Position numbers and translations under genes: made by a program
Shown here: in pieces, positions 11,157-16,052 of the stretch
Numbering within the stretch: the stretch's first letter is position 1
How the letters are laid out: every line of letters starts with the position of its first letter
The notes under the pieces: generated by a model
The model's database searches: none
What the model saw: the letters and a program-made list of their open reading frames with translations, nothing else
Told to the model about the DNA's origin: nothing
Source: Patellaria atrata CBS 101060
Lineage: Eukaryota
NCBI GenBank assembly: GCA_010093705.1
Contig: MU006102.1
Span: 567,548 to 631,547, forward strand
DNA: 64,000 nucleotides
Direction of reading: 5' to 3'

Positions 11157-12102
11157 TCTATAACTCTTCTGAGTATTCCCCTTAGAGCCTCTTCAATCGC
11201 GTCTCCGTCGTCTTCTCTCGTGTTATATAAATTTTGCCTGCCCGCAGCAGCTCGTCCGGTAACGTCCCACTCGAGCTCCGAAAGCTCTCAGAACAACAAC
11301 GAAGACCGAAGCTCAAGTAAGATCGAACGAGCGCAAGGAATAAATGCTTGCGTGAGTTCCGGCTCACTATTTGGTTCTCGAACTTCTCTCGCGAAAGAGA
11401 TATGTTTGAGAGTTTGCTAGAAGGTCCGGCCAGCAGCGGGTTTTCAATGTTATAGAATGAGGTGGTAAAGTTATTGATGACCTCAGGGTGATTTTGTAAG
11501 CTTGAGACTAGTCTGGACTAGTTAAGGACTAGTTACCCGACAGCATCCGCCACGGCCGATCATCCGGGGCACGCCAATCAAAGTGGCGTTTACTCACCAT
11601 ACCGTAAACATCGAAGAATCAACTCAAATTGTAACATTTCGCTATCGTATTCACGAATTCTATGGGTTCCGCTCACCGCATTTCGATATTGTTAACTTGT
11701 TATCAAGGAAACACGTTTTACGTTCATATCTCCATTGGACCTCAGTCAGTGTAATAGGTTCTTTCAACTGGCGTCAAATGTTTATGGGCGCTTGATGTTT
11801 CACGACTCATGAGAGGCTCAATTTCTAAGCGTCAAGTAGTCAAGCCAAGAAGCGAAACGCGTGTTCTGATAATGCTGCGCAAGTGTTGCGTTATTGGTAG
11901 TCATTATTGCTGGTTTTATCAGAGCCAATTCTCAAAATAATGTAGTATGAAACGAGAGAGTGAGGTCATCGGGAAAAGATTCAGAATAAGTCAGTTTGAT
12001 TCAGTTTTGCTCAGGTGTTGAAATGGGTTCCCCGATACGGATGTATCCACTTAACCTAAGGTATCTACGAGCTTGGTTCCACTAAGGTATTCGTATAGAC
12101 TT

Positions 12103-14442
12103 TTATCGTGACTTCCGGAGGAACCCGCCGCGAATTTTCCTCCTCTCCATGGGTGGTAATATCGGCGTCTTCGTCCTTCGATTCCACTCTCGTCCCTTCA
12201 ACCATTGCTCTCTCACTCGTTTGCTGCTATCCGCCTTTGGTGCTAGGAGTACGTTTCTCTTCTCAAGAACGTGCACGTTAATCCCACCTTTCTTAACGTC
12301 TTTAATGGGCTTGCCCTCGCGATCGAGGAACTTGATATGCTTCCTGCGCCGCTGTTCCTCGGCAGATAAAGTAGGTACCTCTTTAGCTTGCAAAGCTGGG
12401 GAGGCTCTCCTGTGAGACATGGCCGAGGCAAGAAGCGATTCGGGAAGAAGATCGGGAAGTTCATCCTTTGAGAACGAAATGGCTTCAGACTGAATCTCAT
12501 CTTGAAACCGACCAGATACATCAGCTACCGTCTTCTGCTCGTCCTCTACTTCACGTCTCTTTCGAGCTTCACTACGTTTCGAACTTTGCGCTTGTGCTTT
12601 TAGACGAGCATCGCGTTCTTGCCGTTTCCGTCTCGTTGTCTCCTGTTGCCTGTATTGAGGTCAGTTGATATTACATGTGTGAGAAGCATAAGATTACGTA
12701 CCTTTGAGAAGCCTTTTCTTCTTTTAATTTCCTAATCTGAACAGTCTCAAACGCAGAGGCTTTTGTGACAATCTCTGGAGCTTCATCATCGCTATCATCA
12801 TCTTCCCATGTGGAAGACAGTATCTCGCGTGACTGAGGAAGCACAGCGACCGTATCAGCTGGTGGATCTTCACTACTGAGTCTGACACGTTTACGATCTG
12901 CAACGATGATTGTCTCTACTTTCGGGAGGGGTTTGACAAGTTTCTCTTCGCTCAGGCGTATAGGTAATCGTTCTTTTGTTACACTTAGACTGGACGACCT
13001 CATCGTCTTAGGGCTCGAATGAGACAGTCTGACCCCTTTTTCATCTGTTGATACGTCGGAATCAGATTGCACGTCGGAAGCGGATTGTATTTCGGGAGAC
13101 GAGCGTTCTTCAGACGATATATCCACGTCTGAGGCGGACTGTACTTCTGGACTCGATTGTAACAGTTGATTACCATCCATTTGGTGAGTTGCAAGTGTTG
13201 CATATGTGGACGTTGAAGCCTTTTTACGAGTCTCGTAGAAGGTTGTATCCTGGCCGATCCTTTCATCTTCGCTGTCTGCGCTATTTGGTGTAATTTTTCC
13301 CTTACTAGGAACTTTAATCACTACCTGAGGGCTAAGTCGAACATTATCCTGGGCCATTGATTTAGCAATTGGTGTAACTATATCTGGAGGCGGTCTAGAA
13401 TGTGACGGGTCATCTTCATCTGTCTCTTGCTCCCTCCTCCATACTAACTCCATGAGATTACTCTCAATACTCTTTGCACGCTGCTGAACCTGAAGTGGGT
13501 CATCATCCCAGACCACCAAAATCATCTCTGTGGCGATCAAAGCGGCAAATTGGTTCTTCTGCGCCTTAGGTAGGTCGTTTATGCCAGGTAGAATTTGAAT
13601 GCGCAACCCGTTCATCAGGGCAACATCTACCGCTTCGGGGGACCATTGAAAAAAAGTATTGATAACTCGAGAGTTGACAGTCATCGCAACCTACTCTGGG
13701 TCAGGGACATAGCTTACAGCATATAGAAAGAAAGTATGCATACATTGACATCCATCTTGGAACAGGCCGCCCCAAATCTCGTCTCCGTCAGTTGCGGTGG
13801 GCAGGCTATATATTTCCCTTTCTTTTCCCTGAGCAGTACTCCCTCGAGTTCCCCTGAGCCATCCGACACCCACAATTGTGAACATTGTTGTTGGTATAGA
13901 TAATTCACCATTACCTCCGATGTGATATTCTCGGTAAAACTGCTTCTATGCTCACGTCGAGTTCTGGAGAGTGAGCCAGGTCTAAGAGGTGGTTCCATTT
14001 TGGCCGCAGTTTTAGGAGTAGATGCAGCGTGGAATGCATTCGGAACTTGTTCAGGCTCAGGCTGAGATGCATCAGACGACTGCACAGCAATTGAGTCCCC
14101 AATATCAGCATCTTCCTCCGCAGGGGTGGAGGTCATTTCCTGTGAGGTTTGTGGTTCACCCTCATGCGAACTATCTTGTCCCTTCACAGTTTTTCGCCTC
14201 TTTCCCCAAGCAGTCGGTGCGGACACCTCTCCAATATCTCTCTTCTGACTTGATCTCGTAGCAGAAGCTACAGCTGGACTATTCGTGTCATGCCCGCCTC
14301 TTGTCGTGACCATCTCAGATTCGAAGAATTCCACTTGCGGGGTCTCGCTTGGGCTATTTGGAACAGTTTTGGCTTCGGAAAGTTCTGAGTTTGAGACTCT
14401 TCTGTATAAGTTCCGGGCGCTGTGTGCAAAGCGAGAAAACAT
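12103..14442 (-). CDS. BUD21: U3 snoRNA-associated (Bud21/Utp16-like) protein with an internal GT2-N-terminal-like insert, 3 exons
   Basis: Exons 14442-13744, 13690-12702, 12649-12103 splice in frame. C-terminal part has EDDDSDDEAPEIV, RRKRQERDARLKAQA, LPDLLPESLL, KHIKF, KDVKKGGINVHVL, LAPKA...REQWLKGR, the motif order of fungal U3-snoRNA-associated proteins. Confidence 0.75.
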
Positions 14443-14587
14443 GAGATGTGGGTTTTGTGATGTAGTTCTTTGGTACCTGAATAATTTTCTCCCAAGGTTG
14501 CGGATTCTTGTGCGGAACTGTGCCGCTCCACAGAACTTCTCGTCTCAAGCTTCAGCTCTCTTATTGATATTTCATCCCTGACTAACA

Positions 14588-16052
14588 ATGTTACAGCGGA
14601 CCCTTACACGCCATTCGAAGAGAGTCTTTGATTCAAGTAATGTTTGTGTCTTTTGCAATGCGTTATACTCTTTCGATCGATCATGGCGCCGCTCATATGT
14701 AGCTCGAAAAGCTCCCAAAGCCCCCTCAGTTATAAAAGCACGAATCGACCGAGGAGCTACTCAGACCCCCTCGAGAACTCAGGATCATTCAGTCGCATTC
14801 CCGTCGCCTCAAGATGTCGAGATGTTCAAGTCAGCTTCAACCCAGGGCTTTCTCCCGATTAACCACTCGGACGCTATACTGTTTCTGAAGAGACTTGTGG
14901 AGTGGAAGACCATGCCATCTGAACAAGAACTAAAGAGAGCATGTAAAGGTATACATAGTATCTCTTATCAAACTTTCAGAGTACCAAGTTCTAAATCGTC
15001 CAGAAACGAATGTCCCTCTCAATGCGCTTACCCCTCTCGCCCACATCATCCTCTCGAACTCTGGAAAGATAAGGCGTGATATAGGCACACGTCTGATTAA
15101 TAGTGCGTCCGCAGCCGGTAGTCCAGAAGCAACCCTCTATATCATGCGCGCTGCGCTTGTCGCCTCCGATTTCGAAAGCCCCCACGCAAAATCCGCTTTC
15201 CCACGTCTCCTTTCACTGACCCAGGAAAACAACATCGATGCTGTCTCCCTCCTCGGCCAGATCTACATGAAACAAAACAAACCCGCCGAAGCCCAAGAAC
15301 TCCTCTCAAAAGCGATGACGCTTAAATCCTCTCCTATCTCTTCCCCCACCACCATCCCATCCCCAGACCCCACACTCTCCACAGGCCCAAACCCTAGCAC
15401 AACCCTCGGTCTCCTCCACCTCCAGCAAAAGGACATCGAATCCGCCCTCGAAACATTCAAAACAGCCGCCCACACCCACGACGACCCAAACGCCTTCTAC
15501 CACCTCTCAACCCTCGAACCCAGATACTCCACCCGCTGGATCGACTACACCCTCCGCGCCGCCTCCTCCGGCCACCGCACCGCCGCCTACAACCTCGGCA
15601 TCTTCTACGCGCTCCCTCTCCACGAAGTCCTTCAGCGCCTCGACTCCAGCGGCCGCAACGAGCTCGCCCGCTTTGAGAAATGGTGGGATGGCCTGCTGGG
15701 GCAGAGGGAGTCGAGGAGGAAGAAATGGGCCTTGGAGTGGTGGTATACCGCGGCGATGGATGGGCATGCGCCGGCTTTCTTAGTGTATTTGAAGGCGTTG
15801 TGGGAGGGTGAGGGAAGAGAGGAATGTGTTACGGCGCTTGCGGGGTTGAGTGTGTTGGTAAGGGACGAAGGAGGTGGGTTTGCGGCACAGTGGCCGGATG
15901 TGGTGGAGGAAGCGAGACGGTATTTGAGAGCGTGGGAGCGGGAGTGGGAGGAATGGCTGGAGGAGGACGGTGGTAGGAAGGCGAGGGAGAAGTTAGAGGC
16001 GTTGAGAGGGAGGAGTGAGTTGGGTTTCAGGGCGTGGTTGTACAATATCTAA
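14588..16052 (+). CDS. Sel1/TPR-like repeat protein, probably mitochondrial (Mss2-like), 2 exons
   Basis: Basic hydroxylated N-terminus (MLQRTLTRHSKR); intron ~14949-15003 joins the two ORFs in frame; helical repeats AVSLLGQIYMKQNKPAEAQELLSKA, LGLLHLQQKDIESALETFKTAA, AASSGHRTAAYNLG, ALEWWYTAAMDGH. Confidence 0.7.

Follow-up and report, generated by a model that had tools for sequence, protein, structure and literature searches.

A family-2 glycosyltransferase N-terminal domain within the Utp16/Bud21 gene of the fungus Patellaria atrata

A minus-strand gene of Patellaria atrata CBS 101060, a Dothideomycete of the order Patellariales, was analysed in a 64,000-nucleotide stretch of contig MU006102.1 (the whole stretch is hereafter called the window, and all positions refer to it). 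Both flanks of its product are homologous to Utp16/Bud21, and a compact block between them is homologous to the N-terminal domain of fungal family-2 glycosyltransferases (GT2). We consider it likely that a Utp16/Bud21 gene acquired, in the P. atrata lineage, an in-frame insertion of the 5' part of a GT2 gene, copied from genomic DNA. The result is a new domain architecture from a known kind of event. Chimeric genes arise by partial duplication or exon shuffling when a domain-encoding piece is copied in frame into another gene and the parent persists.

Architecture of the chimeric gene

Read from the sequence and its open reading frames (ORFs), the gene has three exons and a product of 744 amino acids (aa), laid out in Table 1. 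After splicing, the product matches the NCBI hypothetical protein M501DRAFT_987112 (label P0004) at 100% identity. Two Pfam domains were detected in it. DUF7928 (PF25550) is matched with 188.1 bits (E 9.9e-56) over profile positions 2-158 of 160, and the match is split by intron 1. U3_snoRNA_assoc (PF08297) is matched with E 1.1e-12 and 48.9 bits by exon 3 alone, and with E 1.4e-11 and 45.4 bits in the whole protein (cut-off 27.4). A first-pass annotation, made from the letters and ORFs of the window, had placed a GT2-like block at 13410-13990 between Bud21-type flanks, interrupted by a 53-nt intron (13743-13691). These coordinates agree with those of the Pfam domain and fall inside the widest limits of the insert, and the intron was confirmed as a phase 0 intron with canonical signals. 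If this intron is retained, a stop codon follows after nine codons, so the domain can be read only when it is spliced.

The resemblance of the block to GT2 N-termini is borne out by several searches. Residues 160-318 of M501DRAFT_987112 and residues 2-160 of a GT2 from Aulographum hederae form a gapless alignment (63% identity, E 4e-67). When exon 2 was used as a query among longer proteins, the best 120 of 160 significant matches were listed, and all 119 besides M501DRAFT_987112 carry both PF13632 (Glyco_trans_2_3) and PF25550; they are 604-937 aa long, with 54-75% identity over the domain. P. atrata itself has an intact GT2 of 873 aa on another scaffold (M501DRAFT_932689, P0282), with DUF7928 at aa 66-220 followed by PF13632, and this is the donor-type gene that the first-pass annotation had suggested looking for. 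In BLASTP, aa 141-328 of M501DRAFT_987112 pair with aa 36-222 of this protein. Insert and own GT2 are identical at 99 of the 151 domain columns (66%), and 60% identical over 189 residues. The insert corresponds to the first ~ 190 residues of GT2 proteins, and similarity stops at the acidic linker before the first membrane helix. Its left edge is uncertain and lies between aa 141 and 165, and on the right it extends no further than aa 338.

No GT2 catalytic domain was found in the window, where tblastn with the full GT2 recovers the N-terminal domain only, and M501DRAFT_987112 has no Pfam match to PF13632 or PF00535 at E up to 0.01. Membrane helices were judged by a simple Kyte-Doolittle hydropathy scan rather than a dedicated predictor. 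In M501DRAFT_987112 the highest mean over 19 residues is 1.14 and no window exceeds 1.6, compared with 52 windows above 1.6 in the own GT2, the first starting at aa 247. The absence of a catalytic domain and of transmembrane helices, claimed earlier, is upheld by these results. The fraction of hydrophobic residues is 0.39 in the core of the insert versus 0.17-0.23 in its flanks, and the insert forms a globular unit surrounded by low-complexity host sequence. In summary, the chimera shares with the GT2 family (DUF7928 + Glyco_trans_2_3, ~ 820-940 aa) its first ~ 190 residues, the intron position of most members, and 37 of 38 invariant residues, but differs from it in lacking membrane helices and a catalytic domain, and in evolving faster.

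The family was not equated with GT2 proteins described under other names. ZtGT2/Cps1 is reported to have no orthologue in Pezizomycetes (PMC5653360); since the present family includes a Tuber protein, no assignment was made. Nor was it assigned to AfTFT1 (bioRxiv 10.64898/2026.09.17.752320).

Homology of the flanks was addressed with exon 3 as a query among proteins of at least 318 aa. Of 1475 candidates, eight were significant, namely M501DRAFT_987112 and seven proteins of 382-633 aa (P0124-P0130), among them P0127, named "U3 small nucleolar RNA-associated protein 16" by JGI, and P0126 from Lojkania enalia. All seven carry PF08297 only, and none has DUF7928 or any globular insert. Six of them (447-633 aa) were aligned with M501DRAFT_987112, the seventh (382 aa) being left out. 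The N-terminus MFSRF..MVTTRG..KRRK of the chimera matches MFARV..MVTTRxG..KRRRK of the aligned orthologues, and the acidic DSDDEAPE..VT motif and the C-terminal PF08297 domain are common to all. In a local alignment, the contiguous TPIAR-RASPKIVI of the orthologues corresponds to TPIAK..RLSPQVVI of the chimera (aa 339-360), right after the block. Because Utp16 motifs stand on both sides of the block, with TPIAK..RLSPQVVI directly behind it, this is a true internal insertion and not a 5' fusion.

When the aligned orthologues were turned into a profile, it matched the Utp16 chain in the 90S pre-ribosome of Chaetomium thermophilum (6rxt) with E 3.3e-9 and, weakly, human NOL7 (E 0.038), while a single-sequence search of the PDB with P0003 gave no match. 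The chimera, the Utp16/Bud21 orthologues, and Utp16 of 6rxt have in common the N-terminal motifs, RxSPxVVI, DSDDEAPE..VT, a Lys/Arg/Glu-rich stretch predicted to be helical, and PF08297, but the chimera is longer by ~ 180-190 aa at the insertion point. The motif matches and PF08297 uphold the earlier assignment of both flanks to a Bud21/U3-snoRNA-associated protein, and point to Utp16/Bud21, a factor of the small-subunit processome (90S pre-ribosome), as the host.

Both junctions are in frame, as previously noted, and the exon translations run through them as one open and continuous frame. Contigs of 14.6 and 16.4 kb assembled from two public sequencing runs, both of which behave as DNA, cover positions 12000-14700, and thus both junctions, without differences, joints, or loose ends, at a word depth of 324 and 426. 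Guanine-plus-cytosine (GC) content shows no shift at the junctions (0.44-0.52).

Intron position and rarity of the fusion

In the 171-residue query, the intron site of the insert separates the codons of Asn74 and Val75. The site is spanned by 79 of the 80 metagenome loci encoding the domain, and 64 of the 79 are interrupted at query residues 72-76, that is, at the site of the insert intron. The interruption is a frame break in 32 of these 64 loci and, in the other 32, an in-frame stretch of 16-31 codons, mostly with stops. The remaining loci are uninterrupted (14) or interrupted elsewhere (1). Consistent with the same intron, many fragment proteins in an exhaustive search of representative sequences start at query residue 77 or end at residues 75-77. 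Since the position matches that in most GT2 loci, the intron would have been inherited from the donor, and the template of the capture would have been genomic DNA rather than a processed transcript. This is in line with the DNA-mediated capture proposed in the first-pass annotation.

The 14 loci without the intron are L001-L003, L018, L029-L031, L040, L043, L051, L067, and L078-L080. Ten of them belong to a more distant group, with 41-55% identity to the insert. The intron seems to be typical of the main GT2 lineage, and missing from a paralogous or distant one.

Retention of the donor intron distinguishes the insert from retrocopies. In contrast to usual exon shuffling by recombination within introns, the copy came to lie within an exon, in a fungal gene with few introns. 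Around the insert, only short direct and inverted repeats at chance level were detected, with no target-site duplications, terminal repeats, or transposon features. The exact mechanism of capture may have been, for example, ectopic repair.

The fusion is not widespread. It is absent from all seven other Utp16 orthologues retrieved. An exhaustive HMMER search through 1.84 billion representative sequences disclosed 534 proteins at E up to 0.001, and the counts that follow rest on the best 150 of these matches. Apart from the chimera, 149 were listed, of which 66 continue into the GT2 membrane region and 83 are short-tailed fragments; none has a long non-GT2 tail. PF08297 was found in none of the 42 listed matches of at least 282 aa, all of which have DUF7928, with four matching PF13632 (one below the cut-off). 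In the 80 metagenome loci, 71 run into GT2, nine have too little downstream DNA, and none encodes Utp16. As far as the sequences searched indicate, the fusion is so far confined to a single species.

A stand-alone family consisting of DUF7928 only was considered and rejected, as such proteins proved to be truncated N-terminal parts of GT2s whose genes continue into the membrane region. N-terminal heads of at least 150 aa were observed in ten of the 149 listed representatives. In five of them (P0156, P0157, P0173, P0184, and P0202), heads of 210-405 residues precede the domain, which is followed by the GT2 membrane region. These long heads could be naturally present, or they could stem from gene predictions that wrongly join an upstream gene.

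Divergence and origin of the insert

The insert has a mean identity of 67% to 54 GT2 proteins, which average 80% identity among themselves, and it keeps 37 of the 38 columns that are invariant in them. Compared with either the Aulographum hederae GT2 or the own GT2, its domain contains no indel, and it contains no stop. Changes specific to the insert were counted in tests that assume the insert to be sister to the own GT2 and take as outgroup the majority residue of six other Dothideomycete GT2s. They affect 10 of 82 conserved columns but 22 of the 69 that are variable (Fisher p 0.0047). This pattern argues for relaxed but continuing purifying selection on what would be a folded domain.

In FastTree as well as in quick and careful maximum-likelihood trees (150-151 domain columns), the insert sits on a long terminal branch (0.37-0.55, versus medians of 0.04-0.07), and in none of these trees is its position supported. 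In the quick run, a constrained tree scored better than the free one; this was an artefact of a short free search, and it disappeared when the search was careful. One further sequence, P0120 (labelled Paraphoma chrysanthemicola), has DUF7928 on a branch of 1.15 and grouped in the quick tree with Chaetothyriales and not with other Dothideomycetes. It was left out of the careful tree, the approximately unbiased (AU) tests, and the rate and constraint tests.

A number of observations weigh against acquisition within the P. atrata lineage followed by constraint on the protein, and they are considered here together with the explanations they would favour. The two runs behind the junction-spanning contigs share one sample and could be the source of the assembly itself, hence they are not independent, as would suit a chimera produced by joining the Utp16 locus to a GT2 locus during assembly. 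We regard such a chimera as extremely improbable. The insert is only 66% identical to the own GT2 domain, which excludes a mis-join of the two loci, and in addition both junctions are in frame, GC content is uniform over them, and the contigs of the two runs pass through 2.7 kb undisturbed. The insert is an old, diverged partial duplicate, not an assembly chimera. Alternatively, the gene model could be wrong, with the block absent from the mature protein because a long intron encompassing it is excised, or the open frame could be a fortuitous one in a pseudogene. The public model is an automatic prediction, and translation of the block is deduced from sequence conservation only. Even so, we find this explanation very unlikely, given that one uninterrupted frame crosses both junctions and can be read only after an internal intron is spliced, and that the substitution pattern indicates constraint at the protein level. 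Both annotated introns are ~ 50 nt long, and excision of the block would need one of ~ 650 nt. Among proteins of at least 318 aa, the range of the orthologue search, P. atrata had no other Utp16, so this locus is probably the working copy.

Regarding the donor, the highest identity of the insert is to a domain from Metarhizium, a Sordariomycete (72%, versus 66% to the own GT2), and free trees never place it inside the Dothideomycetes; in the careful free tree its branch is 0.54 (median 0.07). Taken at face value, this would suggest a block from the GT2 of another fungus, obtained by horizontal transfer. However, that placement has no support (47/0) and lies on a zero-length internode, and in AU tests neither a clade of the insert with its own GT2 (9.2 log-likelihood units lower, p-AU 0.354) nor one with Dothideomycetes (7.4 units lower, p-AU 0.36) is rejected. 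Furthermore, Sordariomycete domains are very short-branched, so any fast-evolving copy looks most like them; the rare states T62 and I131 are common to the insert and the own GT2 and occur in at most 5 of 56 others; and no compositional break marks the junctions. A foreign donor is, in our estimate, very unlikely, and a source within the Patellaria lineage would be the simplest explanation of the data. A larger share of doubt goes to the idea that the block is a tolerated passenger, real and translated but with no role of its own in Utp16, a harmless compact fold slowly decaying in a disordered region. Under the sister relationship assumed above, itself open to the doubts about placement, the insert accumulated 32 specific changes versus 9 in the parent, a rate ~ 3.5-fold higher (Tajima chi-square 12.9, p 3e-4). 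Among the 84 columns with at least 90% conservation, it deviates at 11 (GT2 mean 2.8), one of them being the Pro at insert position 98 that is otherwise invariant in all 54 GT2s. Its terminal branch is long (0.54-0.55), and the fusion is known from one species. This last point depends on a sample of seven other orthologues, the closest of which are 43-50% identical in the C-terminal part. On the other side, the changes avoid conserved columns, and 37 of 38 invariant residues are kept, although selection merely against misfolding could give the same pattern. A domain with ~ 34% amino-acid divergence from its parent has acquired neither indel nor stop, and the internal intron retains canonical donor, branch, and acceptor signals. 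We consider a mere passenger possible, if rather unlikely.

The preferred reading, insertion of a copied GT2 segment into Utp16, can be formulated as follows. About 0.6 kb of genomic DNA from the 5' part of a conserved GT2 gene would have been copied in frame into Utp16. The piece would have comprised the cytosolic N-terminal DUF7928 with bits of linker, ending just before the first membrane helix, and would have brought along the phase-0 intron of the donor. It would have landed in the N-terminal half of Utp16, which is of low complexity and little conserved and is able to accommodate a compact domain, and the parent GT2 gene would have been left intact on another scaffold. Afterwards, the copy would have diverged faster than the parent, while its reading frame, splice signals, and almost all residues invariant in the family were preserved. 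With these three preserved, Utp16 most likely includes the insert as a translated and folded part.

Predicted fold and implications

An AlphaFold2 model of the domain, built with 54 homologues, reached a predicted local distance difference test (pLDDT) score of 82.3 and a predicted template modelling (pTM) score of 0.76. The structure depends on this single good model, as the other four of the five had a pLDDT of 47-64. Foldseek related the model to the class II aldolase/adducin superfamily (E 1.8e-4, TM 0.6-0.68), with adducin chains also listed. The predicted fold is shared with L-fuculose-1-phosphate aldolase (2irp, 2fk5) and adducin chains (8iai), but sequence identity is only 6-14%. At the sequence level, the exon translations gave no match to Pfam Aldolase_II (PF00596) at E up to 1, and the DUF7928 profile found only a chance match (E 1.7) among all PDB sequences.

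Catalytic class II aldolases have conserved zinc-binding histidines. In alignments of 55 and 59 sequences, no histidine of the DUF7928 domain is invariant or at least 90% conserved, which makes an aldolase-type zinc site unlikely, and DUF7928 is likely to be non-catalytic. Mean column identity of the domain across the sampled classes is 67-68%. The domain has no functional annotation in Pfam, and a literature search for "DUF7928" found no paper. For the whole protein, the ESM Atlas record (mean pLDDT 0.38, pTM 0.16) fits, weakly, a mostly disordered protein; ESM Atlas searches returned feature matches of 0.83-0.84, below what is usable, and structure rows with TM 0.24-0.34 by query, nothing being reliably named.

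Positions of all features are collected in Table 1. Next to the chimeric gene, in divergent orientation, a 372-codon open frame at 14934-16052 on the plus strand has tetratricopeptide-repeat matches (TPR_2, E 1.5e-7), and ~ 490 bp separate the two coding regions.

Table 1. Features of the Utp16/Bud21-DUF7928 gene in the window.
Feature	Position	Strand	Basis or remark
Whole coding region, Utp16/Bud21-DUF7928 chimera	12103..14442	-	Stop codon 12105-12103; ORFs, translations, identity to M501DRAFT_987112
Exon 1 (aa 1-233), Utp16 N-terminal low-complexity region and first part of insert	13744..14442	-	N-terminus aligns with orthologues; DUF7928 profile positions 2-63 at aa 174-232
Intron 1, 53 nt, phase 0, GTATGC...CTGAC...TAG, within insert	13691..13743	-	Read from sequence
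Exon 2 (aa 234-563), second part of insert, then low-complexity Utp16 middle	12702..13690	-	DUF7928 profile positions 65-158 at exon residues 1-93; acidic DSDDEAPE motif common to orthologues
Intron 2, 52 nt, GTACGT...CTGAC...CAG	12650..12701	-	Demanded by frame and identity to M501DRAFT_987112
Exon 3	12649..12106	-	Stop codon next
DUF7928 (PF25550), aa 174-326, predicted class II aldolase/adducin-like fold	13412..13923	-	Pfam
U3_snoRNA_assoc (PF08297), aa 630-714	12196..12450	-	Pfam; orthologue profile matches Utp16 in 6rxt
Widest GT2-derived insert, aa ~ 141-338, intron included	13376..14022	-	BLASTP against own GT2; orthologue motif resumes at aa 339

As a by-product of this analysis, DUF7928 gains a structural assignment as a probably non-catalytic domain with a predicted class II aldolase/adducin-like fold. 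With a predicted fold resembling the aldolase/adducin head and apparently devoid of the metal-binding histidines, the domain probably acts as a binding or self-association module, now placed on what would be a nucleolar protein. It is conceivable, though doubtful, that the domain was co-opted, keeping its GT2-type partner or its self-association and being wired to the nucleolar processome through Utp16, or serving as a nuclear decoy for the regulator of the synthase. If so, it would represent a lineage-specific link between a regulatory module of a cell-wall polysaccharide synthase and ribosome assembly.

Whatever the role of the domain, the gene offers a clean natural case of domain gain through partial duplication at the DNA level, in which the parent is present and the donor intron marks the mechanism. 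It also illustrates the permissiveness of disordered regions in processome proteins, and it may serve as a naturally occurring construct for studying the role of DUF7928 away from its enzyme.

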